Shown in pieces: positions 2,716-20,300 of a stretch of 25,887 nucleotides of DNA. The stretch's first letter is position 1. Each line of letters begins with the position of its first letter. The notes under the pieces are model-generated. The model did no database searches, was not told the origin of the DNA, and was given only the letters and a program-made list of their open reading frames with translations. The position numbers and the translations under genes are program-made. Origin of the DNA: a virus (taxonomy: Duplodnaviria > Caudoviricetes); IMG/VR virus record IMGVR_UViG_3300011013_000074, positions 1-25,887 of that record. One strand, given 5' to 3'.

Positions 2716-4722
2716 ATGCCTAGAATCACTGCCTTCACTGGAATAGCTCCCAAACTATCGAGCAGATTGTTATCAACCGGTATGGCCGCTGTTGCGGATA
2801 ATTGCCGGTTTTTTTCCGGTGCGCTTCGTTCCTATCTGGATAAGATAGATATTACTCATAACGCACTTATCTCCGGGGATGTTAAAACCATTTTCCGCAT
2901 GAGCGACGGGGTAAGTGACTACTGGTTAAGCTGGCTCACCGACGTAAATTGTGTTCGCAGCCAGATAGCCGGAGATACGGACAACAGAATCTATTGGACC
3001 GGCGACAATGAGCCGAGAACCACTAATCTGACCAAAGCGATCACGGGTGGCGGGGTGATGCCGGATTCCTGCTTTGTGTTGGGGGTATCTGCTCCACTGG
3101 ATGCGCCGACTGTCACACCATCAGGCGGTGTCGGGGCGGCAACTAGCCGTGCGTATGTGGAAACCTTTGTTACCCCGTGGGGGGAGGAGAGTGCGCCAAG
3201 CCCGGTGTCAGCCGTAACAAGCGGTAAGGTTGACGATACATGGGCGTTGAGCGCATTAAATGCGGCACCGATCAACACGGCGACGATCACGGCGGCAAGC
3301 CATGCCAGCGGTATCGTTACTTTAACCACGACCTCTACAAAACACCTGCGCGCAGGCGAAGAGATTACCCATGCCAGCATTCTCGGTATGACGGACTTGA
3401 ACGGCAATTTTCCGGTCAAAGAAGTGATCGATGCGACGCATTACACGATATTGCTGAATACAGCGCAGACTTACACTTCTGGCGGTACTTGGTCAAGGGT
3501 TGCGCCACATAATACTTCTGGTATGACCAGACGCATATACCGCACACTGGATGGCGAGTATTTCTTCGTCGCAGAATTGCCAGTCGGCACGACAACCTAT
3601 AACGATACGATTGCTGATGCTGATCTAGGAGAACCCATCCCTTCTGTCGGATGGGTGATGCCACCTGCTGATATGAAGGGCATGATCGTATTGCCGAATG
3701 GCTATAACGCGGCAATCAGCGGCAATGAAATCGTTTTTTCAGTGCCGTGGCAGCCACACGCTTGGCCGATAGGCTACCGCCTTCCTTGTGAGTTCGAGCC
3801 GGTGGCGATTGGCTCTTATGGTTCCAGCATTGTGGTGGGGAGCAAAGGACTGCCGTATGTCATCACCGGTACAGACCCATCCGGCCTGAGCATGGAAGAA
3901 ACCGAATTAACTGAGCCTTGCTTGTCTGCGCTGGGGATGGTCGATGTGGGCGTAGGCGTGATTTATCCATCACCGAACGGATTGGCGTTCGTGGGTGCGG
4001 GTGGCGCAAAGGTGGTAACCGAAGGAATATTTTCGCGCGATGAATGGCTGCCTCTAAAGCCTGATACATTGCGCTGCGACTATCACAATGGCCTTGTGCT
4101 GGGCTGGCATGACCTGAATGCTGATGCGCGACTAGGCTTTATTTTCGACCCCACCACAAAAGCCTTCACAACAACATCGGTGCCTATCTCGACGAGCTAT
4201 GTAGATGAGGAAACCAATAATCTATATGTGGTAGAGGGTGCGGTTATCTATCAGTGGGATGCGCATCCTTATAACTCCTTGCCGTTTGACTGGAAAAGCG
4301 GCATTGATGTGTCGAAACCAGTCAATTACTCGATTGCCAAGATAGACGGAGATTTTGATGGTGTGAGCCTACTTAACGATGCTGTGGCAGCGGATACCGC
4401 CTATAACGATGTTGTGCTGACTTCCGGTGTTACCGATGGTGAATTGAACGGCTCTATGCTCAATGAGTATGCGCTTAACGGAAGTTTGTTACGTGGCGGT
4501 TCGATTGCTGAATACACTTCGAAGTCTTTACGACTCACTCTTTATGCAGACGGTGAGGAAAAATACAGCCGTGCGATTGAGAACGATACATCATTTTCTC
4601 TACCGGCTGGATTCAAGTCCGGGGTGTTGGAGTTCAGGTTGAGCGGTAACATTCCTGTGCATGGTCTGTATGTTGCACAAAGCGCACGCGAACTGAGGAC
4701 GTTGCTGGGAGATCAGTTGTGA
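2716..4722 (+). CDS. Tail nozzle / tail tubular protein B-like virion protein with an inserted E1-FCCH-like beta module
   Basis: 668 aa, beta-rich, with motifs I.AF.GIAPK.S.RLL, RAYV.TFVT.WGEES.PS, RIYRT, FS.P..PHAWP..Y, F.WKS and F.LPAGF. It sits between the tail fibre and the ejection genes. Confidence 0.65.
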   Translation: MPRITAFTGIAPKLSSRLLSTGMAAVADNCRFFSGALRSYLDKIDITHNALISGDVKTIFRMSDGVSDYWLSWLTDVNCVRSQIAGDTDNRIYWTGDNEPRTTNLTKAITGGGVMPDSCFVLGVSAPLDAPTVTPSGGVGAATSRAYVETFVTPWGEESAPSPVSAVTSGKVDDTWALSALNAAPINTATITAASHASGIVTLTTTSTKHLRAGEEITHASILGMTDLNGNFPVKEVIDATHYTILLNTAQTYTSGGTWSRVAPHNTSGMTRRIYRTLDGEYFFVAELPVGTTTYNDTIADADLGEPIPSVGWVMPPADMKGMIVLPNGYNAAISGNEIVFSVPWQPHAWPIGYRLPCEFEPVAIGSYGSSIVVGSKGLPYVITGTDPSGLSMEETELTEPCLSALGMVDVGVGVIYPSPNGLAFVGAGGAKVVTEGIFSRDEWLPLKPDTLRCDYHNGLVLGWHDLNADARLGFIFDPTTKAFTTTSVPISTSYVDEETNNLYVVEGAVIYQWDAHPYNSLPFDWKSGIDVSKPVNYSIAKIDGDFDGVSLLNDAVAADTAYNDVVLTSGVTDGELNGSMLNEYALNGSLLRGGSIAEYTSKSLRLTLYADGEEKYSRAIENDTSFSLPAGFKSGVLEFRLSGNIPVHGLYVAQSARELRTLLGDQL

Positions 4723-4907
4723 AGCAGATCGGGGCAATTGGTAGCGCGGTACCTAAAGGTGTTCATTCGATTTTGTCTGCCATAAAGCAAAATATTGAAG
4801 AGTTGCGCGGTACTCGAGGGGTAAAAATAAAGCCACTACCCGACAACGCAACGCTGCCGGATGTGATCAAAAAAGTAAACGAAATAATAACGCTAATGCA
4901 GGGTTGA
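4719..4907 (+). CDS. Small tail-associated protein
   Basis: 62 aa, GTGA-coupled to the preceding gene. It has a K.NIE.L.G.RG motif and an ATL.DVI.KVNEII helix, typical of the small gene after this tail protein type. Confidence 0.6.
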   Translation: MKQIGAIGSAVPKGVHSILSAIKQNIEELRGTRGVKIKPLPDNATLPDVIKKVNEIITLMQG

Positions 4908-4957
4908 TTATTTTCAGAATTCAGGTAGAAGTTTTTGATAGCGATTAGGAGATAAGT

Positions 4958-5623
4958 ATGAGCGGCGGAATATTCGGAGGCGTTCAAGATTTATTGTTCG
5001 GCGGCAGCGGTGCGCCGGGTGTACCTGCCAATATCGCTACACAAGCAGGAAATATAGCGGGCTTGGGCGATATTGCAAAAGGGTGGGCAACGGATGATCG
5101 GCAGCGATTTCAAGACATCTACCAGCCGGTAGAAAATAAGTTCGTTGATGATGCCCTGAACTTTGACTCCGCCGATAATCAAGAACGTGCTGCAGGCGCG
5201 GCAGGTGGACTGGTTCGCAAAAGCTACAGGAAAGTTCGCGATGAGAGTAATCGCAACCTGGCACGGTTTGGCATCAACCCGAATTCAGGCCGTGCCCTTG
5301 ATTTGAACAAGCAGATTGATATGGATCAAGCCGCGAACGAGGCGAGTCAAATGAACTTGGCAAGGCAAGGCATCCGGGACAGAGGTATCGCGCTACGTGC
5401 AGGCGTGGTAAATCAAGGCAATGTGGTGGGGAATCAAGCCAGTCGTGGGCTGACTACTGCCATGAGTGGATACGGCGCATCCGGCAATCTTTCTCTAGGT
5501 GAATCTTCGGCATTAACGAACAAGTTTAATGCTGAGACGGCAAGAGAAGGTCTGAATTGGAATAAGTTTGGTGATGTGGTTGGCGCTGGTGCTGGGCTGC
5601 TAAAACCCACAAAGCCAAATTAA
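4958..5623 (+). CDS. Internal virion / DNA ejection protein (small)
   Basis: Strong AGGAG RBS at 4947-4951. Gly/Ala/Asn/Gln-rich helical protein with an R.LAR.GINPNSG motif and Gly-rich termini, typical of podovirus pilot proteins. Confidence 0.65.
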   Translation: MSGGIFGGVQDLLFGGSGAPGVPANIATQAGNIAGLGDIAKGWATDDRQRFQDIYQPVENKFVDDALNFDSADNQERAAGAAGGLVRKSYRKVRDESNRNLARFGINPNSGRALDLNKQIDMDQAANEASQMNLARQGIRDRGIALRAGVVNQGNVVGNQASRGLTTAMSGYGASGNLSLGESSALTNKFNAETAREGLNWNKFGDVVGAGAGLLKPTKPN

Positions 5624-5633
5624 TGGGGGGGTC

Positions 5634-6698
5634 ATGAGCGCATACGGTACTGCCAAGGATTTCAAGCAGGGTTTTGTCAATAAAGGGTATCAGGACGAGC
5701 TAAACGCTATCCCAACCCCTGAGCAGGCCGCTGCAAAGCGTGCAGAGGCAGATATTGCCAAACGAACAGCCGCAACCACAGAGCGTCAGTCGAAAACAGG
5801 CGGTTCATTCCCACAAGTCAGTTTGGTTGGGGATATGAACGCGAAGCCAAGCACGAAACCGGGTCCCGCTGGCGGCATTACGAAGTCTGCCGGTGCATCC
5901 AACATCCCAACCCAGACCAACAACATACCAAGTCAGCCCAATATCGCCGATACCATTGAGTATCTGAAAAGACGCGCAGAGGTCGATCTGCGTCACGGCA
6001 AGATGGATACTGCCGGGCTGGTGAATCTTCAGAATACCTTGTCAAATATGAAGGCGGAAGGATTGCATAGCGCCGTTGCCTTGATGAACAAGGGTGATGC
6101 GCTGGGCGGGGTGAATGCTTACAACAGTATGGGTAATCATCGCTTGAAGTTGGTGGAGCAGAAGGATGGCCAGTTTGAAGTGGGCGGCGTGAAGATTCCT
6201 ACCAAGCTGGTCACGCTGGAAGATGAAAAAGGTAATCGAGAAACCATCAATACCGCACACTTCCTGAATTCGGCAGTCGGGCTGGAAAAGCTGATCGAGC
6301 AGGCGCAGGCCGGGTTTGAGAATAAAACTGATCGTATCGGAGCGGATGCGGATGCGGTAAAGGCGGATGCTTCCATGATTAAAGCAAATGCGGACAAGAA
6401 AAAATCTGAGTCTGATGCCTCTAAAAAGCCAGAATATAAAGTTGAGGGTGGCGAGGTGGCGACAGTTCTTGGCGACCCTGTATTGCGTAAAGATGGTACG
6501 CCGAAACTTGACCCAATTACTGGCAGGCAGTTGGTGAATCGAAATACGGCAAAAGAGAAGGCGTTTTATCGTTGGATGTCCGAGCAAGGCATCACCGATA
6601 CCAATGAGGGGCTTGCTATATATATGGCGCAGAATCCTGAGCCGCTAGAGCGCACTCCAACAAGAAAGCCCGGCGTTAAAGCGTCGGATTTTGACTAA
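5634..6698 (+). CDS. Internal virion / ejection protein (medium)
   Basis: 354 aa, helical, with a low-complexity Pro/Thr linker and a G-rich RBS. It is the second gene in the small-medium-large ejection gene series. Confidence 0.5.
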   Translation: MSAYGTAKDFKQGFVNKGYQDELNAIPTPEQAAAKRAEADIAKRTAATTERQSKTGGSFPQVSLVGDMNAKPSTKPGPAGGITKSAGASNIPTQTNNIPSQPNIADTIEYLKRRAEVDLRHGKMDTAGLVNLQNTLSNMKAEGLHSAVALMNKGDALGGVNAYNSMGNHRLKLVEQKDGQFEVGGVKIPTKLVTLEDEKGNRETINTAHFLNSAVGLEKLIEQAQAGFENKTDRIGADADAVKADASMIKANADKKKSESDASKKPEYKVEGGEVATVLGDPVLRKDGTPKLDPITGRQLVNRNTAKEKAFYRWMSEQGITDTNEGLAIYMAQNPEPLERTPTRKPGVKASDFD

Positions 6699-6712
6699 CT
6701 CCGGAGGGTTGA

Positions 6713-6860
6713 GTGGCATATAACCTAAAGGCAGCGAGGGATGCGGGTGTACCTGATTCGGAAATAGCAGATCATCTTGCAAACCTGCATGGCTATCAAA
6801 TCAGCAAAGCCAGAGAAGCTGGGGTGACTGATACGGAGATTGCCGACCATCTATCCAAAA
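6713..6860 (+). repeat. Tandem duplicated 26-aa N-terminal motif
   Basis: YNLKAARDAGVPDSEIADHLA versus YQISKAREAGVTDTEIADHLS. The DNA has diverged at synonymous sites. Confidence 0.85.
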
Positions 6861-9800
6861 AAAGTACGACAATCGCCAAGGTAAAGAACGCTATCACGTC
6901 TGAAACCATTGCGGAGCGTGCCGAGAAATTACCTGCTTCATCCAAAGAACCATCGCCAAGGGATGTGCTTCAAGTGGATGATGGCCGTGTGACCACCACC
7001 ACCGACCGCGCTACTGATATTTCAGTTGATAAGCTGATTGCCCCGAAGGGAGGAGAGCGCGACATCATGGCGGAAACGTCACGCTTTCTGCAAAGCAATG
7101 ATGACATCCTGCCAGAACAAACTAGATCAGAAGCCGTAAAGGACATATCGCTACCCACGGTAGACCCAGCGGAAGAAGAAGCAAAAGCACGGCGTGATGC
7201 ATTGATCGTGCTAGCCAAGACGAATACGCCGGAAGGTGTGAATGCGCGTCGTATCCTTGATGAGCAGTGGGGGGAGTATGCCAGACAAAATGCGCGGCAG
7301 AACCGCGCCAATGCCAACCCCATAACAAGTGATGCCGCCACTGACTTCATGATAGGTGTGGCGCAGATACCTGGTGCGGCAATCGGTTTATTGGATATTG
7401 CACCTGCGCTGGTTTTCGGTGGACGGCCGGCCGATTATTTGTTTGACGAGATCGGCAAGGTTACCGGCTTTCATCCATCCGAATACGCGAAGCGATTGGA
7501 GCAAGACTATTCCGACATCCGCAAGCAGGGACAGGAGGATATTGCAGCGGTTTGGGATGATGAAACGAAGGGCTGGTGGGATGTCACCAAGGAGTATGCC
7601 GCCAACCCCGGCGTAACGGCTGGTAATGTAGTCAAGTCATTGCCTATCATCGCAGCAGGCGGCGTAGTCGGCAGAATCGCCATGCTGAAAAAAGCAGGCT
7701 TGGCACCCGTAACGGCTGGTGCGATTGGCGAAGGCTCAATGATGGCTGGTTCGCAGATGCAGGACTTTGATGAGTCGGTAGACGCACGTAAGGCGGCACT
7801 GGCAAGCCTTGCGACCGGTGTGCTTGGCGCAGCTATCGGTAAATACGGTGGCGCACTGGCAAGCAAGCTCGGCATTCGTGATGTGGATACATTAGTCGCC
7901 GGTGGTGCGGTCGGTGGTGTCACTTCACCATTCTACAAGCGAATACCGGCTGCAATGGTCCAAGAAGGCATCATTGAGGAAGCAACTCAATCATCTATGG
8001 AGCAGATGCTTAAAAACATCGCTGAGGATAAGCCAGTGATGGAGGGCGTGGATCGTGCAACTGTTGAGGGCACGCTAGCCGGTTCTGCTATGGGTGGCAT
8101 GGCTTCAGCACCAGGAATATACAAGAAACCGGGAATGCTTACCCGTGCCGTCAATAAGGCGCAACAGGGTGATATTCCCGATGGCGCAATCAGTGCCGAT
8201 GAGGTGCTGGGAGCGGCTGACAGTTTGGCGCAGCCCACCGGAAAAGAAGCTGCCACTTCGACGGTGGAACAAGCTGCGCCTCCTATTAACGGGGGTCAGG
8301 ATGGCACAACTTCTACACCTTTGGATGCCGGACTGGATACAGGAACCGTTGAGAGCGGGAATCCTGACGGAGAAGGAAGCGCAAGAAATGACGTTCTTCA
8401 ACATGATATTGATTCAGGAACCGGACGCGATGGAGTGCCCGGAGCACCTTTGGAATCTGATGGAAAGATTGTCACTGCACAGAGCGGAGACAGAACAAAG
8501 GCCGTCATAGACGCGAAGAGTGAAATTGACGAAGCAGCGCGCGAAGCAGCAACATCGCCAGAAAATAATCTACCAGAGCCAACTCAAGGGCAGAAAGAAG
8601 CGGGCAACTACAAGAAGGGACACACCACCATTCACGGTATGGATGTCGCTATAGAGAACCCTCAAGGCTCTGAGCGCAAGGGTGTAGACCCAGACGGCAA
8701 GGCATGGAAGGTAAATCTTCCTGCCCACTATGGCTACATCAAGCGCACCGAAGGCGCTGACGGTGATCATGTCGATGTTTACATCGGCCCCAACCCTGAA
8801 AGCGCGGAGGTCTTTGTAGTTGATCAAGTGGATGCTAAAACCACTAAGTTCGACGAGCACAAGGTCATGATTGGCTTTAAAAGTGAAGCCGAGGCAACGA
8901 CTACTTACAAGGCTGGTTTCAGCGACGGCAAGGGTGCTGATCGCATTGGCTCCATCACGCCATTGTCAATGGATGAATTTAAAGGCTGGCTGAAAGATGG
9001 CGATACTAAGAATCCGTTAGCGAAGCAAGTATCCAGCAACGTCCTGCGCAAACACATCGAAACCCTAATCAAGTTTAAACGCAACGCCGGACAAGTAAAG
9101 CTTGCGCCGCAACTGGAAAATGCCATCAACAAAGCGAAGAATGCGCTCAAGACCGGCAAAGGCAAAGCTTCAGACTTTAAGAAGTTGGCGAAAGTGTTTA
9201 AGGGTAAGGATGATGCTATTTCTACCGAGTTATTGAGCATAGCTGACATGCTTGAGTCATCTAGGCCCGCACAGAAAAAACCACAAAAAGCATCCAGCGA
9301 CCTATTGCAGCGCATCAAGCAGCTTGGGGGCGTGGATATTGGTAGCGTGCTGGACATTACCGGAGAACCTAAGGCCCCAGGCGCGTGGAAGTTTGCATTC
9401 CGTAAGGCAGGGCGCGGATTGGATGATCTGGCAACCGTGCTGGCCGCTGAAGGCTTTGCTATCGACACTAACGATGTAGACGGTGGTGTTCAGCAATTGA
9501 AGGATATGATTCGCGCCCACATTAATGGTGAACGCAACTTCCGGCATATCGACATCGAAGAGCAGGCGGAGCGCAATAAAAACGATGAATACCTGAATAG
9601 CTTGTATGAAGAGGCTGACAAACTTGGAATAAAAGTTGACGGCATGAGCCAGCAACAAATTGAAGATGCTGTTTACGCAGAGGAAGATGCGCGTATCATG
9701 GCATCAGCAGATGCTCAAGGGCTGAATGATGGCGAAGCAGAAGTGTCGGATGCCATCTTTGATGGCGTTGTTGAGAATGATGATCTCGATCTCGATAACC

Positions 9801-10372
9801 TCACGCCAAGCACACCTGAGCAAATAGCCGCATGGTTAGGAGAAGATAATGGGCAAGAAGGGAATTCAAGCGAAACTCAAGACGCTACCACCGAACAGCC
9901 AGAAGAAGGTACTCGACCTGACGGCGAAGCGACTAAAAACACGGGAGGAACTAAAAACGCGACTCTCGAAAGCTACACAGAAGCGGACCTAGCCGCACAA
10001 ACTAAGGCTAAAGACAAACAAGCTAAGGCGGATCAGGACGCAGACGAAACTGCCAAAGCCGAGGCTGAAAAAAGAAATGTGCGTGATCGTAGTGTGGGTG
10101 CCGCGTCCGAATTCCAATTGGGGCAATCCGCAGAAGATAACCTAGCAGGCCAGAAGGATATATTCTCAGCACCCGAACCCAAGAAAACAGAACCTAAGCC
10201 TGAGCCTACCAACATTATTGCTTTGGCCGATATACCAAGAACCCTCAAAATAACGATTGAGAAAGATGTTCGCGGCAAAACCAAGACAAAGTTGGTAAAC
10301 GCACGCAAGGCAATGACACTTGCCACACAACGGGTTGAAAAGCTGCAAGCCTTGAAAAGGTGTCTAGGATGA
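6713..10372 (+). CDS. Large internal virion (ejection) polyvalent protein with an inorganic pyrophosphatase-like (InPase) domain
   Basis: GGAGG RBS with a GTG start. Gly/Ala hydrophobic segments and an E...EE..Q motif at about 7340-8110 suggest membrane penetration. PT..QKEAGNYKKGH...IENP.GS.R.G...HYGYI..TEGADGDHVDV...FDEHKVM.GF at about 8575-9020 matches the InPase domain of polyvalent proteins. Confidence 0.8.
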   Translation: MAYNLKAARDAGVPDSEIADHLANLHGYQISKAREAGVTDTEIADHLSKKSTTIAKVKNAITSETIAERAEKLPASSKEPSPRDVLQVDDGRVTTTTDRATDISVDKLIAPKGGERDIMAETSRFLQSNDDILPEQTRSEAVKDISLPTVDPAEEEAKARRDALIVLAKTNTPEGVNARRILDEQWGEYARQNARQNRANANPITSDAATDFMIGVAQIPGAAIGLLDIAPALVFGGRPADYLFDEIGKVTGFHPSEYAKRLEQDYSDIRKQGQEDIAAVWDDETKGWWDVTKEYAANPGVTAGNVVKSLPIIAAGGVVGRIAMLKKAGLAPVTAGAIGEGSMMAGSQMQDFDESVDARKAALASLATGVLGAAIGKYGGALASKLGIRDVDTLVAGGAVGGVTSPFYKRIPAAMVQEGIIEEATQSSMEQMLKNIAEDKPVMEGVDRATVEGTLAGSAMGGMASAPGIYKKPGMLTRAVNKAQQGDIPDGAISADEVLGAADSLAQPTGKEAATSTVEQAAPPINGGQDGTTSTPLDAGLDTGTVESGNPDGEGSARNDVLQHDIDSGTGRDGVPGAPLESDGKIVTAQSGDRTKAVIDAKSEIDEAAREAATSPENNLPEPTQGQKEAGNYKKGHTTIHGMDVAIENPQGSERKGVDPDGKAWKVNLPAHYGYIKRTEGADGDHVDVYIGPNPESAEVFVVDQVDAKTTKFDEHKVMIGFKSEAEATTTYKAGFSDGKGADRIGSITPLSMDEFKGWLKDGDTKNPLAKQVSSNVLRKHIETLIKFKRNAGQVKLAPQLENAINKAKNALKTGKGKASDFKKLAKVFKGKDDAISTELLSIADMLESSRPAQKKPQKASSDLLQRIKQLGGVDIGSVLDITGEPKAPGAWKFAFRKAGRGLDDLATVLAAEGFAIDTNDVDGGVQQLKDMIRAHINGERNFRHIDIEEQAERNKNDEYLNSLYEEADKLGIKVDGMSQQQIEDAVYAEEDARIMASADAQGLNDGEAEVSDAIFDGVVENDDLDLDNLTPSTPEQIAAWLGEDNGQEGNSSETQDATTEQPEEGTRPDGEATKNTGGTKNATLESYTEADLAAQTKAKDKQAKADQDADETAKAEAEKRNVRDRSVGAASEFQLGQSAEDNLAGQKDIFSAPEPKKTEPKPEPTNIIALADIPRTLKITIEKDVRGKTKTKLVNARKAMTLATQRVEKLQALKRCLG
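8291..8296 (+). promoter_or_regulatory. Candidate RBS for the nested ORF at 8301
   Basis: GGGGGT-CAGG-ATG resembles the G-rich GGGGGGTC-ATG context of the gene starting at 5634. Confidence 0.4.
8301..8510 (+). CDS. Candidate nested (overprinted) 69-aa protein in the +1 frame of the 1219-aa gene
   Basis: MAQLLHLWMPDWIQEPLRAGILTEKEAQEMTFFNMILIQEPDAMECPEHLWNLMERLSLHRAETEQRPS. It has an RBS-like sequence, amphipathic helical patterning, and coincides with a disordered host-frame linker. Confidence 0.55.
   Translation: MAQLLHLWMPDWIQEPLRAGILTEKEAQEMTFFNMILIQEPDAMECPEHLWNLMERLSLHRAETEQRPS
9838..9842 (+). promoter_or_regulatory. Candidate RBS for the nested ORF at 9849
   Basis: TTAGGAGAAGATAATG has AGGAG 6 nt before the ATG, nearly the same as TTAGGAGATAAGTATG before the gene at 4958. 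Confidence 0.5.
9849..9992 (+). CDS. Candidate nested 47-aa basic protein in the +1 frame of the 1219-aa gene
   Basis: MGKKGIQAKLKTLPPNSQKKVLDLTAKRLKTREELKTRLSKATQKRT. It has a well-spaced AGGAG RBS and overlaps an acidic disordered linker. It is not listed in the ORF track, whose shortest entries are 60 aa. Confidence 0.45.
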   Translation: MGKKGIQAKLKTLPPNSQKKVLDLTAKRLKTREELKTRLSKATQKRT

Positions 10373-10659
10373 GCGGGCTGTTTGATGATGATGATCTGGA
10401 AGATTTAACCCCGCCTACTCAGCCCTCAATTGGCGAAGAGATAAATTCTGCACTTGTACCAGCAGTCAAGGATATGCAGCAATCAAACAAGGATCTTGCA
10501 ACTGATTTAGCGCGGAGCATGAAAGAGGCGATTGAAAATATGCCGAAATCACATGAACCGCACAAGCAGATTCTTGAGTGGGATTTTGAAGTAAACTATA
10601 CAAAATTAGACGGTATTTATAGGCCAACTAATTTCAAGGCAAAAGCGGTGGTTAAGTAA
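10369..10659 (+). CDS. Hypothetical phage protein
   Basis: The ATG at 10369 overlaps the upstream TGA (ATGA) and is preferred over the start at 10360. Acidic N-terminus and a WDFEV...KAK C-terminal hairpin. Confidence 0.65.
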   Translation: MSGLFDDDDLEDLTPPTQPSIGEEINSALVPAVKDMQQSNKDLATDLARSMKEAIENMPKSHEPHKQILEWDFEVNYTKLDGIYRPTNFKAKAVVK

Positions 10660-13652
10660 TGGCCATCTCCATCGTTGGCGGCAAAATAAACATCGCTGGC
10701 TCGTATGCTAGCGGTACTGCCACATCCGGCACATCTACATCAATTACTGACACGGGAGCAGCATGGACAGCCTCACCCGCTACAGCTTCACTTGAGCGTC
10801 GCATTGTTTGGATTACTGGCGGGACTGGTGCTGGCCAGAGTAGGGCTATTGAAAGTAACACTGGAACAACAGCAAACATCTACCCAACCCACCCTTTCTT
10901 TCCTGCACCAGATAACACATCTACCTATGCATTCGGCTATGACTTAACTGATATTCAGGCTGCTGGTTACGGCTCTTGGTTGATCGGCGTGACAGAGCGT
11001 ATTCTGAACGTGCCAACATACGACATCAACATTTCTGCAACAGGTTTCTTCGGGCAAGTAGGCGGCGCGCTCAACTTTACAACTCTTGACAAAACATTCT
11101 ACGGCGCAGTTGGCGGCTATTTCCAATTAGGACAATTGGTGAACGGTCGCGGTGTGGACGGTATGGCAATATCTTTCGCAAAGAATACAGCGACAGGTTG
11201 GTTATATCCTGCTTTCCTATGCCGCAGGAATATGTATGGCGTGCAGCTCACCTGCCAGAAGGAGATTGCAGAATCCCACATGGTAGCTTGGTATGCAGGC
11301 ACTACGCATGATGCTGTTGAATATATTGATTGCGTAACTCGCAATGTCCCGCTCTACATCGAAAATGGTGACACCGCTAAATATGTGGCTCAAAACGGAT
11401 TGGGTTCAATTACGGTTGAAAGCGATGCGGCGGCGGCTGATTTCTTGACTGTGCTTAATACTTCTTTTGTGCCAAGTGAAACAGTGGCTTATGACGGACA
11501 AGACATTTTTGACCTATCAGTAAATGGTATCCCGGGCGGGGTAAGGCCATTCCAGATTATAACGTCTGGATATGCCAATACCTACGGAGCGGCCTATTTC
11601 TGGAATTTAACCACTGATGAAATAAGCTATCTGCATAACGTATTCATGTGGATGCGCTTTACCAATGGAAAAGACGGATACACAGACAATTATCTAGGCA
11701 ACACGGTTGACATAACGGTCGTTGATGGTGCGTCCGTTGGCATACAAGGTGTGCAAATCAGGGTTGCTGATACAAACGGTAATGATGTAATTGTCACAGG
11801 TAAAGCAGGCACACCAGATTACGAGCCTACTTTTGGCACGATAGTTACAGATTCAAATGGAACATACACAGGGCCATTCGGTTCTAACGAGGGTATGTTC
11901 ATCATTCACAACAAAATTGAATGTGCGAACCCAACACACACTTGCCAAAATGCATTAACGATAAGCTCTGCTAATCCAGCTATCGTCACTTATACAGGTT
12001 CAGATGTTTACACAAGTGGAGGAGAGCTTGTTATTCATACTACTGGCGCACTTCCTACGGCTATCCCGAACGATCAGGTTATTTACGTTAAAACAGGGAC
12101 GCTAAACACCACAACCAACACATTCCAAGTCGCGCTGACTCCTACCGGGACTGCTTTAGATGGTGCTGGCACTCAATCTGGTACGCATTTAGGACAAACG
12201 TACAACGCAAGTTTCAATAGAACTTGCTACCGGACAGCAATAACCAATACAGATTATTCACCTTACTCAATGACGATGGTGAAGTATGGATATGTGGCTC
12301 AGACAGTAGCAAGGAATTGGAACTCCCGATCTGTAGAAACAAATGGTATGGCTGTTAATAACTTCGTGGTCGCCAGCAAAGCGACCGCAGCAGCTTATAC
12401 TGGAGTTTCTATAACAGGGAGCGCAAAGACAATCGTGCTTTCTGTCGCAAGAACTTTGCAAGAACTATATGACTACTCGCAAGCGTGGAGAGATACATCA
12501 GGTGGTGCAAACCTGCAATATACAGAACCTTTAATAACGCCGGACGGAATCAACTTCACATTAAGCACAGGATGGTCATTGACACCAGAGAGTTATCTTG
12601 ATTATGAGTCAAAGCGGGTGGCTGGCGGTACGATTATATACCCAACAGCAGGAGTATATGCGCCGACACTAGGAACTTGCACTATATCTTTCGGAGCGGT
12701 ATCAGGCTCTTATACATTAAGCTCTGCCGATATATCCGGTACGGTCACTTTGGTTAATACGGGCGGCGGAAGCCTCACTGTTTATCTACCTGTTGGGACA
12801 TCCTACGTAAACACGGGGCCAAACATCACGGTAGTCACTGGGACAGTGGCAATATCAGCGCCGAACCTAGCAGACGGCACAAAAGTACGCTTGTACAACG
12901 TAACAGATGATGTTGAGATTGAAACGGCAATTGTCTCTGGCGGGGCTGGGTATATAAATAACTACACTTTTGTTTCCGACTTCACAGTCAGACTTGATGC
13001 GACATACCAAAATGGAACGAGCGCCTATGAACCTATCGTAAATTCCACAGGGCTTGTCACCTCTGCGGGATACACCTTTACAGATACTCAATCTGCGTGG
13101 GCTGCGTATGATGCGTGGGGGCTAGATGGCTCAACGATGACAGAGTTTACCGCTGATGCGTTAGGGCATATTGAAGTTGACATTGACGACCCAGATGGTG
13201 TAACGCAGAAAACAAGGCTTGGTGCTTGGTATGCCTATCTTCTTACAACAGATATTGGAATCCGTAATTACATGGGGGTTATATCACTTGTATCTGCGGC
13301 TGAGATAGTTATTCACTCTGCTGTTGTGGACTTGCTTCTGGATAATGTCAGCACCACAAAAGATGCGCGTTTTGACGATTTGACAGTCAATATGTATAGC
13401 GACCAAGGCACAAGCCTAGTAGCGTCAACCAGCAAGACTATCGTTCTTGAATACAATGGACAGCCAAGTGTGGTAAACCTGGCAACTATGCAAACAAAAA
13501 TAGATGAGATTCATGGGCTTGACGGACTTGATGCAGCCAGACCGCTGAAAGTTCTAAAGGATAATACCTCTCGATCAGCGGGTGTCGGCGCAGGGTCTAT
13601 AAATCAAACCATTGAGGATGATGGAACAACCGTGACGGTAACGAGAGTATGA
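10659..13652 (+). CDS. Large beta-rich virion appendage (fibre or spike-like) protein
   Basis: 997 aa, Thr/Gly/Ser/Tyr-rich. N-terminal SGTATSGT...ITGGTGAGQ.R.I.SNT module, internal TISSANPAIVT...TTGALPT...NTFQVA module, and C-terminal GLD...PL.V....RSAG...I.QTI....TVTR module, all of types seen in phage structural proteins. Confidence 0.6.
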   Translation: MAISIVGGKINIAGSYASGTATSGTSTSITDTGAAWTASPATASLERRIVWITGGTGAGQSRAIESNTGTTANIYPTHPFFPAPDNTSTYAFGYDLTDIQAAGYGSWLIGVTERILNVPTYDINISATGFFGQVGGALNFTTLDKTFYGAVGGYFQLGQLVNGRGVDGMAISFAKNTATGWLYPAFLCRRNMYGVQLTCQKEIAESHMVAWYAGTTHDAVEYIDCVTRNVPLYIENGDTAKYVAQNGLGSITVESDAAAADFLTVLNTSFVPSETVAYDGQDIFDLSVNGIPGGVRPFQIITSGYANTYGAAYFWNLTTDEISYLHNVFMWMRFTNGKDGYTDNYLGNTVDITVVDGASVGIQGVQIRVADTNGNDVIVTGKAGTPDYEPTFGTIVTDSNGTYTGPFGSNEGMFIIHNKIECANPTHTCQNALTISSANPAIVTYTGSDVYTSGGELVIHTTGALPTAIPNDQVIYVKTGTLNTTTNTFQVALTPTGTALDGAGTQSGTHLGQTYNASFNRTCYRTAITNTDYSPYSMTMVKYGYVAQTVARNWNSRSVETNGMAVNNFVVASKATAAAYTGVSITGSAKTIVLSVARTLQELYDYSQAWRDTSGGANLQYTEPLITPDGINFTLSTGWSLTPESYLDYESKRVAGGTIIYPTAGVYAPTLGTCTISFGAVSGSYTLSSADISGTVTLVNTGGGSLTVYLPVGTSYVNTGPNITVVTGTVAISAPNLADGTKVRLYNVTDDVEIETAIVSGGAGYINNYTFVSDFTVRLDATYQNGTSAYEPIVNSTGLVTSAGYTFTDTQSAWAAYDAWGLDGSTMTEFTADALGHIEVDIDDPDGVTQKTRLGAWYAYLLTTDIGIRNYMGVISLVSAAEIVIHSAVVDLLLDNVSTTKDARFDDLTVNMYSDQGTSLVASTSKTIVLEYNGQPSVVNLATMQTKIDEIHGLDGLDAARPLKVLKDNTSRSAGVGAGSINQTIEDDGTTVTVTRV

Positions 13653-14092: not shown

Positions 14093-14361
14093 TGGCTCTA
14101 TCCGCACTCAGCATTGTAACCAAAGGAATCGGCTTCGGGGCGGTCGCGGTCGCTCTATCTGGTTTTGCCGATGTCTCAGTTACGCCGCCTGCATCACCAC
14201 CTCAACAGCAATACACTATGGGGGCTGGCGGGAGTAGTTTTGCCAAAGCGACAATTGTAGATCGTCCATCGCCTAACACGCTTGCATTAAAAATGCTAAG
14301 GCAGGATGATGAAATGGTACTGGAAATTATAATGGCTGCAGTTACAGGGAACCTGTTATGA
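14092..14361 (+). CDS. Hypothetical phage protein
   Basis: 89 aa, coupled on both sides (TAATG, ATGA). Hydrophobic Gly-rich N-terminus and a DDE..LEIIMAAV C-terminus. Confidence 0.65.
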   Translation: MALSALSIVTKGIGFGAVAVALSGFADVSVTPPASPPQQQYTMGAGGSSFAKATIVDRPSPNTLALKMLRQDDEMVLEIIMAAVTGNLL

Positions 14362-17300
14362 CTATCGCATCATGCGTTGAATCCATAAATAAAGGCAAAG
14401 TAGTATTCCGCGAAAAAGACGTAAAGGAGATTCTTGCGGCAAAGAACCGCATCATATTGTCCGGTGAAAAGGTTTTAGCGTCGGCAGAGCGTAAAGCCGT
14501 TCAAGAGTTGCTTGATGATGCGCTGGCCGATCAAGCGATGGTGGATGAGTTGGTGCGGGAAGAGTTGGGATTGCCAGTTGAAAAACCTGTCGCCGCTATC
14601 GACACCTCAAAGAAACCAGTCGATGAAACGGGGGAAAATAAACGGGTTGCCGAACCCGCGAAGCCAAGCAAGCCGACCGCAAGCTGGATTGTAAAAAATA
14701 AAAAGACAGGAGAAGTTCTGTTTGAGACATTCGACAAAAAGAAGGTCGATGCACTGAATACGGAAAAATATGAGGCCGTTCCAATTCAAGATCATCTTGT
14801 CGAGATAAATAAGAAAATAAAAGCAGAGAAGCCCGATGATGGCGTTGCGCTGTTTAGCAAGAGCGATCAGGCTAAACCTGCTCCAGAAGCAAATTCATAC
14901 TCAGAAGTTGTGAATATAGTAAAGAAATATGCGAAGGAGTTTGGTTATATAGTATTAGTCCAGGATAGCAGTGCTGTTTCAAAAAGCGAATACTTATACG
15001 TTAAGAATAAGGATGGCAAAGTAATTAAAATAAGAATCTCTGACCATGCTGATGTATCTATGCAGGCTGGCGGAGCCAGTCAATCAATCAAGCATGATGC
15101 AAGCATTGATTTTGTAGGAGGCGATTTTGAAAATTTAATTGACGATATTGTTATCTATTTGGCGGAAGATGCGGGAAAAAAAGTGCCAAGTGAGATTGCC
15201 AGCAGAATGCACGAATACAGCAAGCGGATGGATGAATACGCGAAGCGGAAGCGTCAAGAGAAGGTAGAGTACGAAAAGAAATACCTATCTAATCAAGCAC
15301 TGAAAGACATTGAAGCATGGAGGAAAGAAAAAAAAGACTATGATGAACTTGCCGAGCGTCTACCTGAGAACGCAAAGAAAAGGAATGCAATATATAAATC
15401 CAACGAAATAAACGACCGCATCCTGCATCTTGAAAAACGAATAGCTAATTTCCAAGCCGACCCCAACATAGGAGAAAGATTCCAAAACAGGGAATGGGAC
15501 TCTTTTAATGTTGGTGAGCAAAGCACTCTATCATCAGCGCTTAAAAAGGCCGGCGACAAGAAAGTGGCAGCACCTAAGGAAGTTAAAGCGTCAAGCGTAG
15601 TGATTGCCAATACCCTAGCTGGCCAACAGGATGTATTCGACCGCGTAAGAAATGGCGATATTACCTCAGAAGAGTTTAAGTCGGCATTTGCTTCCGTGTT
15701 GAGCAACAAGGATGCGTTGGTAGCTGAATTGTCGAGAATGACTAAGCCGCAGATTTTCGAGAAGTACCCAGGCTTATCGGTGCGATACAAGAATGAGCGA
15801 AAGGCGGATGTTGTGGATGCAGCATACGACGATATGATCCTACGTTTTACGTTGGGGAAAACGCTCCATTACCAATTAGGAAGTTACGGATCATCGGGAA
15901 TCCAAGAATCTACATACGACAAAGCAATTCGGGATATAGTTGAAGCTACCACCGATGAAACCCTTGCCGAATACGCGGCCTCAATAAAGCAAGATGAAGA
16001 AGATCGTGCCGCCCAGCGCAAGGAAGCCGAATCTGGGATGGAGAATCCGCAAACCATAACGGACTTCAAACGCATCCTCATTGCGAAAAGTAAGGAAACC
16101 GGCATAACTCTGGTTGATGACCTGCGTATGATGCTGCCACTTGAGCAGCGTATCCAATATGATGAATTGGAGGCTGATGCCTCACGATCCGAAAGGGATG
16201 GACGCAAGGAATCACAGAAAGACTCATTTATCCGCGCCCCCGGTGAGGCTGTCGCCACCACTGAGATTATCCATACCAAACACACCAAGCAAGGCCATGA
16301 CTTGTGGCAGTTCAACTTTGAAGATAAAGTATCAAAAGAAGAGTTCCGCGCACTAGCGGCGCAGGCACGTACATTGGGTGGAAACTACTCAAGCTATCGC
16401 GGCAGTGGTGCGATACCTGGCTGGCAGTTCCGTACTGAGGAATCCGCCAAGGCATTCAAAAAACTGGTGGCTGGTGATGCTACCGAAGCGAAGGATATTG
16501 CGCAGGAGCGACGCAACGCCTTTGCCGATGATAAATCTCAGACCGCCGTTGAGCGTTTAACCGAAATGGCTGACGCGCTGGAAGAAAAGGCCGACACAGC
16601 ATTAAATCAAGACCGCAAGGAAAATACACATAGGCGTGCAGAAATAGCCGCCAGAGCCGAGGCCGCAGCCAACAGCGATAAGGCGCTGGCCAAGACAATG
16701 CGCAATATTGCAGAAGCAATCGATAGCGGTAAAGCCAATCTCCTCGACCGCATTCGCCAGAAGATTCAGGTTGAAACCTTGCGCGGTTATGTAAATACCG
16801 CTAAGTCAGATATGCAACGCAAGCAATATGACACCTATGCGGAGCGCGAAAAACACAAGGATGATCCAACAACGGTCGAGGTTGCCGATCACGTAACATT
16901 CCCGACTTATACTGTTTATCGTTCGGATTTGGCGAACGTGGGCCGTACTTTATTAGTAAACCCCGGAACTAAAATGCTTGGCCAGCGAATCATGAAGGTG
17001 GCCGATGATGTCAGTAATGTTTATCTGAAGTTTGCCAAAGAAAATCTGAATAAGGTGGCGACTTTCGGAACCAAAGATTTGAAGATTGCGACCTTTTCTT
17101 CAAAGGCTGATGCTAATGCCGCAATAGCACGATCAAATTTCAGGGGGATGGCAATACCTCTGGCCGTTAAACGCAACGAGGTAATGATTATTCTCAGCCC
17201 GTCAGAGGCTATAAAGCGCGGCGTATGGGAAGGAGACAACGACAAACGCATAACCCTTAATCCTAGGGCCGGTGCAGATATTGTTGAGAAGCTAGGCAAA

Positions 17301-20300
17301 GCGGCGAGGAGGGAAAATAGAGCGACTCCGGTGCCGTGGCAGTTTGAAAACGCCTACGAAAACCGTAAGCGATTGGCGGGTATGGGTATCGAAACCCCTG
17401 CTGAATTGCGTACAGCCCTGAGAGAGTTTATTAGCTTGCAAGAAGCTCCGAAGGTGGCCGACAAAATCAAGAAGCTGGAGCGCGCCATGATCGGGCGCAA
17501 GAATGATGGGCTTGATTTCTTCCCGACATCTGCGGTGGTAGCTGATGAAATGATTGAGTCTGCGAATATCGAAGAGGGTATGAGTGTACTTGAGCCATCG
17601 GCAGGTATGGGGCATATTGCTGATCGCATCCGTGAGGCTGGCGTTGAACCTGATGTAGTGGAAATGGCTGGTGATCGACGCGAGTTATTGGAAGCTAAGG
17701 GATATAACCTAGCTGACCGTGATTTCATGGATGTGTCCGAAAGTTACGACCGTATCATAATGAACCCGCCATTCAGCGACCGGCGCGATGCAGAGCATGT
17801 ACAGCACGCCTACGAATTGCTCAAGCCCGGAGGCCGATTGGTTGCCTTGATGGGGGAGGGCGTGTTCTTTGGTAGCGACAAGAAAGCGTCCGGCTTCCGC
17901 GACTGGCTTGATTCAGTCGGAGGCACAGAAGAAAAGATTGATGATGGTGCATTCATGGATCCATCGCTACCGGTAAATACCAGCGTAGCCGCTCGTATGG
18001 TGGTGATCGATAAGTATGACGACGCGCCGCAACTTATGCAAAGCCGCAGCGGTGACTACGCCCTTGAAAACCCCTTCTACTCACAACTCAGCAAGGCAAT
18101 AGAGAAAACGCCGGAACGCCTATTCGTTACTGGCAAGCAGTTTGCTTTGTGGCTCAAGTCGAACGCAGCGAAGCTAGGTGTAAAGAAAGCTGAGATCGAG
18201 GCGGTAGGCATCACTGATTGGCTGGAAACTCAGAAGAAGGTTAGCAAGTCTGACGTACAAGCATTCCTTGATGCGAACGGTGTGCAGGTCGAGGATGTGG
18301 TGCTGGGCGATGAGCCGGTACAGCTACAGAAAGCATTTTCTGATAAAGGGATCAAGGTAGAGTGGAACCAGCACAACGAAGAATATGATTACTTCGATAA
18401 AGACGGAGACATACTGGACTTTGATGAATTGCCTAAGTCATTGCAATCAGCCGTCGATACGGCATCTGATGATGGTTCTGGCGACCCTACCAAGTTCGCT
18501 AAATGGCAACTCCCCGGTGGAGAAAATTACCGAGAGTTGCTGCTGACGTTGCCTGAAAGGGGAGCATTACAACTCAAGGGTGGGATGGATGTGCGCCAGC
18601 AAGAAGATGGATTGTGGAATGTATGGGATAAAAACGATTGGGTGTTTCATCAAGAAGGTGCTACAAAGACTCGTCAGGAAATGGAAGCAAAGGCCGCTAC
18701 TGACGATATGATTGCAACACGCAGCCAAGATGACTTCCGATCATCCCACTTCACCCAACCCAACATCCTAGCCCACATTCGATTTAATGAAAGGGTTGAT
18801 GCTGACGGCTTTAAGGTGCTGTTTATAGAAGAGATTCAGTCTGATTGGGGGCAGAAGGGTAGGGGTGATGGGTTTAAGCAAAACTTTACCGCTTCTAAAA
18901 ATGAAGATGGTTCGTGGCTTGTGAGAAATGGTAGTGGTGAAAAGCAAGGCTCTGTTCACGCCGATAGCGAAGCAGGTGCTATTAGACTTTATGGTGGCGA
19001 CAATGGAGTTCCCCTCGCCCCCTTCGTAACCGACACTAAATCATGGACGGCCCTAGCCCTCAAGCGAATGATTGCCTACGCCGCAGAGAACGGCTTTGAC
19101 AAGGTGGCGTGGACAACAGGGGGGCAGCAGGCAGAGCGGTATGATTTAAGTAAGCAGATAAAACAAATCACTGTCAAAAAGAATATATCCGATAACGGAA
19201 CGTGGGATGTCAAAGCCTACGATCTAAACGACCATAAAAAAATTACAGAAACGATCAGCAACCTTAGTGAGCTTGAAGATTATATCGGCAAAGAGGCTGC
19301 AAATGCCGCAATTAAGCAAGTGGAGGAAACTGGCTCTGCTGACCTGCGCGACCAAGACCTCAAAGTGGGTGGCGAAGGCATGAAAGGCTATTACGACCAA
19401 ATAGTGCCCCAAGTAGCGAATGACATCATGAAGAAGTTAGGCGGGGGCAAGGTTGGGAGTGTTGACCTAAAGCCTTATGGTGATAAGAATTTAATTTCTA
19501 TTGATGAGTCTGATGCTGCCGAAAGCATTGAAAAAGGCGATGTTGTTTATGGAAAAAGCGAGGGCGGCGAGTACATAGTTTTAGATGAGGCTTACGAGCT
19601 AGATGAATACGATGTTTTTTATAATGAATCTGGGATGGCGTTGTCCCAGCCCTCCATCACCATCACCCCAGCCCTGCGCGACACCTTAACCACAAAAGGA
19701 TTGCCGTTATTCAGCACACAACCTAACCGCACCCCGACGCTATCTGTCTCTGACGTAGAGAGGGCAACCAAAGCATTGCGAAATCGCTGGATCGGATTTC
19801 AAAAAATTAAGATCGTCAACTCAGTTGCGGATGTTGACCCTGAAACTATGGACGCGATCAATAGCTCTAAGGGTGGAGTGATCGATGAAGATACTGAGGG
19901 CATATATGACGCTGCAAGCAAAACAGTTTACTTGTTTGCCGACAATATATCTGATGCTGACCGTGCTGCGTGGGTGGCAATCCATGAGGTCGTGGGTCAC
20001 GGTGGAATCAGAATGCTTGGTGCGCCAGTATCGAAAGTGCTTGATAGGGCTGCAACCAATGGATTTGTTAAGCAATTGGGTAAGGCAATAGCTAAAGAGC
20101 GGAAGGAGAAATACAATAATAGAGCTCATACTGATGAGGCTATTGCGGAACTTGCCGCAGCAACGATAACAGGAAACCATAATGAGATATTAAACCGTTA
20201 TGGTGTCAAAGTGCCTACAACAATGATGGGTAACTTAAGGGCGGTCATACAGCGTGTTATTGATGCGGTCAGAAAATTCCTGTCTGCCGCTGGGGATGCC

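Follow-up and report, generated by a model that had tools for sequence, protein, structure and literature searches.

Among the two-component spanin genes, lambda Rz1 has approximately 60 codons and lies wholly within Rz in the +1 frame; it is initiated separately, and the phage makes both proteins. Rz1 acts in lysis as a lipoprotein of the outer membrane and carries a signal sequence and a lipobox. In phage P1, loading of DarB, a giant antirestriction protein, into heads requires the small accessory proteins Hdf, DarA, DdrA and Ulx. Giant polyvalent proteins are regarded as anti-defence cargo that is injected, and to our knowledge it is not understood how they fold, remain harmless and are loaded into capsids. 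Iyer et al. (2017, PMC5512222), writing on polyvalent proteins in phages and conjugative elements, list InPase and DdrB-ParB as phage-type polyvalent domains; the text of that article contains neither 'overlapping' nor 'frameshift', uses 'nested' twice and both times of something other than genes, and describes no second gene inside linkers. The literature searched, whose coverage excluded subscription journals, held no description of nested genes in polyvalent proteins. A hidden gene in another setting is described in the ShiLan study, in which an in-frame insertion in actinophage DNA methylase genes hides an HNH endonuclease encoded out of frame (PMC11855218).

To evaluate a candidate overprinted gene put forward in a preliminary description, we analysed a window of 25,887 nucleotides comprising positions 1 to 25,887 of the IMG/VR virus record IMGVR_UViG_3300011013_000074 (Duplodnaviria; Caudoviricetes). 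The +1 open reading frame at 8301-8510 very likely represents a genuine gene with its own initiation, embedded in the linker region of a polyvalent InPase gene, and its small, acidic, putatively helical product is a predicted partner of the giant virion protein in assembly, packaging or inhibition. The partner role is a guess prompted by the genetic linkage to the giant gene.

The candidate nested gene and its host

All features described for the window lie on the + strand. The host gene (6713..10372) encodes a 1219-aa polyvalent protein of the virion, DarB-like class, with PHROG matches to DarB-like and virion-protein families. Pfam and PHROG matches place the gene in a structural module, and the adjacent 3179-aa ORF carries ART-PolyVal. 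The host protein has the attributes of phage polyvalent proteins, being giant, multidomain and virion-associated with InPase as a conflict domain. This InPase domain occupies 8588..8995 (aa 626-761; Pfam PF18823, E 9.6e-56), and PHROG-level homology around it begins at about host aa 596-603.

The nested gene (8301..8510) comprises 69 codons in the +1 frame of the host gene, from an ATG at 8301-8303 to a TAG at 8508-8510, with a Shine-Dalgarno-like GGGGGT (8291..8296) 4 nt 5' of the ATG. It underlies host aa 530-600, a low-complexity linker that is G/D/S/T-rich in the host frame. The ATG, the frame, the RBS-like motif, the length of 69 aa and the composition of the linker had all been proposed in the preliminary description and were confirmed in the sequence. 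Two of its details required correction: the peptide string quoted there begins at the second Met (8325), whereas translation from the true start, the Met at 8301, gives a product beginning MAQLLHLWMPDW..., and the gap from the nested stop to InPase, put at approximately 65 nt, measures 78 nt to the start of the Pfam domain. The Shine-Dalgarno-like motif of the window is G-rich with a spacing of just 4 nt, and a similar G-run also stands 5' of the window's gene at 5634; the nested starts of relatives have AGAGGT, AAGGAG or GGAG with a spacing of 5-7 nt.

Judged from the window alone, the ORF is of unremarkable length. The +1 frame is without a stop across 8079-8507, and none of the 12 large genes of the window has a longer same-strand alternative-frame run than these 143 codons. 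Among 500 synonymous-codon shuffles, a run of at least 143 codons nevertheless arose in 15.8% for the whole window and in 12.4% for the host gene, so that p values of 0.12-0.16 are not compelling, and the 69 codons remained open in 4.8% of 2000 rounds of host-codon resampling. The nested ORF is judged to stand above chance because of its conservation in other phages.

Homologues of the nested protein

A homologue search with the peptide had been suggested as a check, and it recovered proteins of 65-91 aa with a matching start and E values to 1e-11. Four matches at E<=1e-3 (E 9.7e-12 to 3.4e-4) were obtained by phmmer against 1.84 billion representatives, three of which align their own Met with the window Met at 8301, and a profile search returned 6 proteins. 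The homologues P0005-P0007 are represented as protein only and come from a library of called ORFs, a biased sample since such a library can contain open frames only. P0005 is encoded in a Gallionellales MAG. As queries against viral contigs, P0005 and P0007 gave nothing, and the locus found with P0006 (L089) was discarded as a chance 22-residue match in an ordinary ATPase-like ORF. In tblastn searches of 50,697 phage records, the 69-aa peptide gave nothing below E=2 and the L002 and L042 peptides had no match.

At the DNA level, the window clade is represented by two independent lineages only, the window and the pair L084/L085; L085 is an IMG/VR contig. In both L084 and L085, a giant ORF (>1885 and >2182 aa, respectively) harbours a 69-codon ATG..TAG ORF in its +1 frame. 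The contig of L084 is probably rearranged or chimeric, because its junction cuts a RecE-like gene, and L084 was rejected as a near-standalone arrangement on this ground. L081, from the metagenome scan, was set aside as a relative, since with 100% identity across 6495 nt it is the contig of the window itself. Among sequencing runs, two matching the sequence were listed, both of DNA and both possibly the source sample, and none of RNA.

The host-frame linker as a query found only its own protein in an index of 5.8 billion proteins, no match in the scan of viral contigs, and just two weak, unrelated matches in the scan of genome contigs. The closest relative of the host gene (L001) is homologous over host aa 76-471 and aa 847-1096 and lacks aa 472-846 entirely, a missing segment of 375 aa that exceeds the nested island.

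A profile search of six-frame translations of the fetched loci identified 34 nested ORFs, all 34 of them in the +1 frame and within giant open frames; 33 start with ATG and one with GTG, and each has a Shine-Dalgarno-like motif and a stop. Another 28 giant genes contain, in their +1 frame, members of a related 64-aa family, each time with a Shine-Dalgarno motif and ATG. The sequence-level tie between the window family and the 64-aa family is weak (hhalign probability 52%, E 1.4e-4, over 23 N-terminal columns). The copy of the 64-aa family in the isolated Aeromonas phage phiARM81mr (50936-51130 of its record) lies unannotated inside the CDS ARM81mr_p69, as anticipated by the suggestion that standard annotation would miss such a gene; annotation pipelines skip it because gene callers forbid same-strand nesting.

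The position just before InPase, which had implied a tie to this domain, proved not to be specific. In L085 the nested gene is followed by a ddrB-ParB domain and InPase comes another 450 aa later, in L037 it is positioned after InPase, and in 48 of 79 InPase loci no nested copy is present within the fetched 3 kb. Stops in the +1 frame of homologous linkers had been named as an observation that would speak against the gene. Such stops do occur in all 13 loci in which at least 38 codons before InPase align weakly to the window linker, but the conflict is only apparent, since these are low-complexity alignments and not the homologous stretch, and the real nested ORFs of these loci are intact slightly upstream.

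The open +1 stretch upstream of the ATG in the window (8079..8300; 74 codons, with a GTG at 8094) probably lies outside the nested gene, because L084 and L085 have a +1-frame stop two codons 5' of the conserved ATG and homology begins at the ATG. This open stretch might instead be read as part of a programmed +1 frameshift, in which ribosomes slip after the N-terminal domain and terminate at 8510, so that the product would be a truncated giant protein with the peptide as its C-terminus and not a free small protein. SD-like motifs are able to stimulate frameshifting, as in prfB and dnaX, and one database protein of 255 aa (P0014) fuses a host-frame domain with the 64-aa peptide. However, the stops of L084 and L085 are matched by +1-frame stops one or two codons 5' of the conserved ATG in many 64-aa-family loci, and the onset of homology at the ATG likewise argues against slippage. 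P0014, the only such case, is one sequence from one contig and resembles a frameshift error; it was rejected as a longer form of the nested protein because it looks like frameshifted read-through. We regard frameshifting as very improbable.

Selection on the nested frame

DNA similarity between the window and L085 runs from the ATG to the stop, and the 60-nt flanks look random. In ungapped comparison, the nested frame has 50% identity and a BLOSUM62 score of 174, the host frame 35% identity and a score of 117, and the remaining four frames scores of 80-98, with all six frames 35-50% identical. In control windows of the InPase domain, the +1 frame shows just 26-36% identity and scores of 11-55. 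Mismatches at host codon positions 1/2/3 number 34/31/23 of 70 in the overlap and 57/44/103 of 160 in the InPase domain; by this comparison, the overlap shows excess conservation at host third positions (Fisher p 1.3e-5) and reduced conservation at host positions 1+2 (p 0.003). Both here and in the 64-aa family, variability is greatest at host first positions.

The 64-aa family permitted a larger test. Its mean pairwise mismatch at nested positions 1/2/3 is 0.185/0.188/0.280, with 0.52-0.58 in ungapped flanks. Along a minimum spanning tree of 23 unique sequences with 414 differences, those silent in the nested frame and changing the host number 194 (expected 104) and those of the reverse class 96 (expected 121; binomial p 1.2e-12). 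Rough omega estimates across settings are about 0.19-0.47 for the nested frame and about 0.59-1.04 for the host frame. The comparison of dN/dS in both frames that had been proposed as a check thus finds, in the 64-aa family, the nested frame more constrained and the host linker drifting. The related claim that the linker is a by-product of the nested gene holds to the extent that the host linker of this family looks largely unconstrained, with omega of about 0.6-1.0 vs 0.2-0.5 for the nested frame; in the window and L085, the host-frame score of 117 exceeds the by-product level, so that host-frame or compositional constraint may coexist.

Conserved alternative-frame ORFs in the same host genes served as controls, and in 23 of 26 clusters identity is higher in the host frame than in the alternative frame, with mismatches at the host third position. 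The other three clusters comprise the two nested families and an additional candidate, which turned up in the course of the control comparison.

Together these data weigh on the proposal that the open +1 frame is an accident of some other conservation, either of the host linker peptide (for instance a processing site) or of the nucleotide sequence as RNA structure or recombination site. All six frames are 35-50% identical between the window and L085, the host-frame score is somewhat raised, and open +1 runs as long as this one appear in 12-16% of codon shuffles, all of which would suit such a by-product. The proposal is disfavoured, and we consider it distinctly unlikely, since the nested frame has the top score, host third positions are over-conserved with first positions most variable, and substitutions are skewed to nested-silent sites (p 1e-12). 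The 23 true by-product clusters all show the opposite behaviour, start, Shine-Dalgarno motif and stop are kept in 34 of 34 ORFs, and the island RNA has a fold z-score of -0.95 and no Rfam match. The comparative sequence evidence therefore supports a nested protein-coding gene with its own Shine-Dalgarno motif and ATG that appears to be under purifying selection.

A real gene could still serve its own propagation. The nested ORF might be a mobile island of approximately 200 nt that enters the linkers of giant genes as a selfish in-frame cassette without breaking them, its protein serving the spread or retention of the cassette in the manner of ShiLan. The restriction of window-L085 homology to ATG..stop between unrelated flanks would fit this proposal, as would the differing neighbours (InPase in the window, ddrB-ParB in L085, and a position after InPase in L037), the absence of detectable N-terminal similarity among the three host proteins compared, and the just moderate correlation of nested-protein and InPase distances (Spearman 0.37); PMC11855218 provides a precedent. 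Sharp island edges, however, are equally expected if the nested ORF alone is constrained while the linker drifts. The 64-69-aa product has no nuclease or other Pfam/PHROG match, and in the material compared no presence/absence polymorphism was seen among otherwise close host alleles, with no allele pair differing by the island alone. We consider the cassette unlikely.

Predicted product

The 69-aa product is predicted to be a small acidic four-helix protein with a pI of 4.7. AlphaFold2 (AF2) gave helical folds for both the window family (pLDDT 82.3; alignment of 9 rows) and the 64-aa family (pLDDT 84.4; alignment of 23 rows), whose layout resembles that of the window family. The nested peptides match neither Pfam nor PHROG families at E<=0.01 to 1 and have no PDB sequence match, and the ESM Atlas gave no usable match. 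Foldseek against the PDB returned nothing at E<=0.001, its top rows being ParB/Noc HTH domains at a non-significant E of about 4. When the nested protein (alignment A2) and the InPase domain (alignment A4) were co-folded, the score was 0.01 (mark 0.32), which speaks neither for nor against binding.

Implications and comparison with known systems

In the preferred reading, that of a separately initiated nested gene, ribosomes on the giant gene's late mRNA would start internally at the nested Shine-Dalgarno motif and ATG, and most of the host-frame linker would be a passenger translation of the nested gene. However rampant the domain shuffling, nesting would ensure that the small gene cannot be separated genetically from the giant one. 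Given the age and modularity of the nested family, a pre-existing small gene captured through gene fusion is as possible an origin as de novo overprinting. A more far-reaching proposal, conceivable although we doubt it, is that the +1 frame of polyvalent (DarB-like) linkers holds, unannotated, an ancient and widespread family of small helical proteins that serve the giant protein as obligate partners, such as a chaperone for its loading or a latch silencing cargo domains until injection, with nesting making them inseparable from the giant gene during shuffling. If this obligate-partner reading is true, the 'disordered linkers' of polyvalent proteins are partly the shadow of hidden genes.

The conserved hidden gene provides a candidate partner of giant polyvalent proteins that annotation pipelines have passed over. 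A low-complexity linker need not be a free spacer and may instead arise as passenger translation from a second gene, and linker engineering or 'synonymous' recoding could therefore destroy a second protein. The comparative test used here, which combines codon-position bias with accidental alternative-frame clusters as controls, is reusable for further cases.

The accessory proteins of P1 DarB offer a working model only, in that small proteins encoded beside a giant injected protein are needed for its incorporation. Hdf, DarA, DdrA and Ulx are separate genes, whereas the gene described here is nested, and the likeness is one of model and not of sequence or fold. The host gene itself belongs to the polyvalent class as set out by Iyer et al., as a giant multidomain protein with InPase beside the ART-PolyVal protein. 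The likeness to ShiLan is that the stop-free host read-through forms a tolerated loop or linker and the other frame holds a complete hidden gene that ends near the island ends. Unlike in ShiLan, the nested product here is neither an HNH protein nor a recognisable nuclease, the material compared gave no sign of homing, and a ShiLan-like homing endonuclease was rejected on the lack of a Pfam/PHROG family or PDB sequence match and a best Foldseek E of about 4.

The 69-aa product has no N-terminal hydrophobic signal, its single Cys is residue 46, and the fold expected for it is that of an acidic, soluble helical bundle. With no lipobox signal, this position of the Cys, a helical model and a host that is not a lysis gene, an embedded spanin of the Rz1 type (o-spanin), which would be a short, Pro-rich periplasmic protein from a lysis cassette, was ruled out. 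Unlike Rz, the host is part of a structural module and encodes a virion polyvalent protein, and the sequences are not similar, but the locus shares with lambda Rz1/Rz its arrangement of a small gene inside a larger phage gene, in the +1 frame and with its own start.

The nested open reading frame and its host gene

The window is a phage genome fragment with a structural module that includes an SU10-type adaptor, tail-fibre-like and internal-virion proteins and two giant "polyvalent" ORFs; two further ORFs of this module, at 5634-6698 (354 aa) and 10659-13652 (997 aa), have no match in Pfam or PHROGs. The first giant ORF, the host gene considered here, occupies 6713-10372 on the plus strand and encodes a 1219-aa protein whose InPase domain spans aa 626-761; the product of the second (14358-23897) has 3179 aa and matches to methyltransferase, FtsK-gamma and ART-PolyVal. 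Both share a match to phrog_11358 (aa 242-470 of the 1219-aa protein, aa 254-1240 of the larger one), and several +1 open runs of 60-102 codons occur inside the 3179-aa ORF.

The elements named in the preliminary description are all present on the plus strand: a Shine-Dalgarno-like GGGGGT at 8291-8296, an ATG at 8301 and an ORF of 69 codons in the +1 frame of the host gene that ends with TAG at 8508-8510. The host-frame translation across it is, as had been proposed, a low-complexity, G/D/S/T-rich linker. The product begins MAQLLHLWMPDW; the peptide string first quoted for it began at the second Met and not the first.

Judged from the window alone, the nested ORF exceeds chance weakly. The +1 frame is stop-free over 8079-8507 (143 codons), the longest same-strand alternative-frame run among 12 large genes; when synonymous codons were shuffled within genes (500 shuffles), runs of at least this length arose in 15.8% of cases across the whole window and in 12.4% when only the host gene was considered. 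The nested 69 codons stayed open in 4.8% of 2000 resamplings with host amino-acid sequence and codon usage fixed. Upstream of the nested ATG, the frame is open for a further 74 codons (8079-8300). As the excess within the window is weak, the case for a nested gene depends on comparison with other sequences.

Homologues of the peptide and relatives of the host gene

The homologue search suggested for the peptide was productive: when the 138-aa +1 translation was compared by phmmer with 1.84 billion representative proteins, four matches reached E<=1e-3, namely P0004 (69 aa, E 9.7e-12, 51% identity), P0005 (91 aa, E 6.0e-10, 41%), P0006 (65 aa, E 2.9e-4, 42%) and P0007 (67 aa, E 3.4e-4, 36%), a set with ascertainment bias because the source library consists of called ORFs and hence of open frames only. 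A profile search added close variants, for a total of six proteins. The first Met of P0004 and of P0007 pairs with the window's Met at 8301, the start of P0006 matches it in the multiple alignment, and in P0005 the equivalent residue is an internal Met.

The host-frame linker as query retrieved nothing beyond the window's own contig. Among relatives of the host gene the nearest is L001, which is 61% identical over aa 76-471 and also matches aa 847-1096. It lacks host aa 472-846, that is linker, nested gene and InPase together, and has about 66 codons in their place; this difference, at window 8126-9250, represents gain or loss of a domain cassette in polyvalent genes. The linker aligned weakly to the pre-InPase stretch in 24 loci, and +1-frame stops were present in all 13 of these with at least 38 codons aligned. 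Such stops had been named beforehand as evidence against the gene, but we rejected this reading because the alignments reflect low-complexity misalignment.

A probable second coding frame in two lineages

The P0004-type peptide is encoded on two IMG/VR contigs, L084 and L085, which are mutually 91-95% identical. In L085 it is a 69-codon ATG-to-TAG ORF (5001-5210), placed +1 relative to a giant ORF at 3656-10201 (>2182 aa); in the protein of the latter, ddrB-ParB follows immediately on the nested ORF and InPase lies 450 aa beyond. Similarity between the window and L085 is bounded by the ATG and the stop codon, with 60-nt flanks on each side that look random, and both contigs have a stop in the +1 frame two codons ahead of the nested ATG. 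Such stops just before the ATG in relatives make a programmed frameshift a very improbable explanation. In L084, homology to L085 begins 78 nt upstream of the nested ORF (L084:4714-4720), directly preceded by a minus-strand ORF whose match to a RecE-like exonuclease profile is confined to the profile's C-terminal half, and the contig seems to carry a rearrangement or chimeric junction here. P0005 has an N-terminal extension similar to the +1 translation of window 8079-8300, which suggests that the contig of P0005 is closer to the window's host gene than L085 is.

In an ungapped comparison of roughly 70 codons, the window and L085 are 50% identical in the nested frame (BLOSUM62 score 174), against 35% (score 117) in the host frame and 36-44% (scores 80-98) in the other four frames; 70-codon control segments from the InPase domain gave at most 26-36% identity in the +1 frame, with scores of 11-55. 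Mismatches at host codon positions 1/2/3 numbered 34/31/23 of 70 in the overlap and 57/44/103 of 160 in the InPase domain of this pair, so that in the overlap host third positions show a large excess of conservation (Fisher p 1.3e-5) while positions 1 and 2 vary more than they should (p 0.003). Such a pattern marks a second coding frame, on the basis of two independent lineages.

A wider family and its selection

When six-frame translations of the loci fetched were searched with a window-family profile, the first round gave about 26 weak matches, nearly all +1 relative to InPase, and one iteration brought the set to 34 nested ORFs: those of the window, L084, L085, L002, L037 and L042, and 28 copies of a 64-aa family (one of 63 aa). 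All 34 lie inside giant open frames of 743-2183 codons within the loci's reach; the start codon is ATG in 33 and GTG in one, and AGAGGT, AAGGAG or GGAG stands upstream of the relatives' starts at a spacing of 5-7 nt. By hhalign the two families match over 23 N-terminal columns (probability 52%, E 1.4e-4), and their relationship at the sequence level is only probable; it is backed by common frame, size and signals, by bridging members such as L002 (N-terminus MAQLL) and by similar predicted helix layouts. AlphaFold2 predicted four helices for the window product (residues 2-7, 11-18, 24-39 and 48-65; 9 rows, pLDDT 82.3, pTM 0.64) and a similar helix-turn-helix, Pro-rich loop and long helix for the 64-aa family (23 rows, pLDDT 84.4). 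One database protein, P0014 (255 aa, one metagenome contig), joins a host-frame-like domain and a junk-like stretch to a complete 64-aa nested peptide, and is probably a contig frameshift error or gene-caller artefact.

Within the 64-aa family the 195-nt ORF forms a conservation island, with mean pairwise mismatch of 0.185/0.188/0.280 at nested positions 1/2/3 and 0.52-0.58 in ungapped 150-nt flanks. The comparison of selection in both frames, which had been proposed as a check, was run on this family. A minimum spanning tree of 23 unique sequences, an approximation that ignores multiple hits, held 414 differences (101/117/196 at nested positions 1/2/3). Nested-silent, host-changing substitutions were observed 194 times (104 expected), host-silent, nested-changing ones 96 times (121 expected) and those changing both frames 124 times (187 expected); the excess of nested-silent over host-silent changes has a binomial p of 1.2e-12. 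Rough omega under a multiplicative model was 0.19-0.47 for the nested and 0.59-1.04 for the host frame, ranges that hold across three divergence cut-offs and three transition weights. These frame tests, a fold z-score of -0.95 and the lack of an Rfam match speak against the island being a by-product of other conservation or an RNA element, a reading that we regard as quite improbable.

As a control, 701 same-strand alternative-frame ORFs of at least 45 codons in these host genes were clustered. Of 26 clusters with at least three informative pairs, 23 had the character of by-products: host identity exceeded alternative-frame identity and mismatches were concentrated at the host third position. 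Three clusters departed from this pattern: the window family (alternative-frame identity 0.66, host 0.56), the 64-aa family (0.74 and 0.61) and a small additional group. The last comprises +1-frame ORFs of 68-74 aa in the same giant genes (L046:5093-5299, L060:5093-5299, L049:4808-5032 and L062:5279-5503) with a conserved C-terminal 38 residues beginning MLTK; its alternative-frame identity is 0.91 vs 0.85 for the host, most mismatches fall at its own third codon position, and it may be a second nested gene.

Interpretation and comparison with known systems

These comparisons demonstrate, at the level of sequence, an ORF that is conserved, has boundaries and ribosome-binding signals of its own and evolves under purifying selection, and we consider it very likely that the nested gene is real. 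Translation would begin at an internal ribosome start on the giant gene's late mRNA, the host linker would accept whatever the small gene dictates, and nesting would preserve linkage to the giant gene through domain shuffling, which is evident here from the missing segment in L001, the differing neighbouring domains and the unrelated N-termini. Origin by overprinting and by fusion across a pre-existing small gene are equally possible. The supposed tie to InPase did not hold: in L085 the domain after the nested gene is ddrB-ParB, and in L037 the nested gene lies downstream of InPase. It is present in 31 of 80 InPase-selected loci, and 48 of 79 loci with InPase have no nested copy within 3 kb. 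The window product is acidic (pI 4.7, net charge about -7), and the nested peptides have no significant match in Pfam, PHROGs, PDB sequences, the ESM Atlas or Foldseek against PDB. Our guess is that the product is a partner of the giant protein, such as a chaperone, loading factor or inhibitor.

A hidden out-of-frame gene within an in-frame insertion was described in 2025 for ShiLan (PMC11855218). A selfish cassette in this style would fit the sharp island and varied contexts, but the nested product carries no recognisable nuclease and this explanation is unlikely. The text of the polyvalent-protein paper (PMC5512222) does not mention overlapping genes, and the literature searched holds no description of nested genes in polyvalent proteins. 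The view that annotation misses such genes is borne out by Aeromonas phage phiARM81mr, the sole isolated phage found with the 64-aa family, in which the ORF lies unannotated within the CDS ARM81mr_p69. Nested +1 genes as such are classical in phages, as with Rz1 in Rz.
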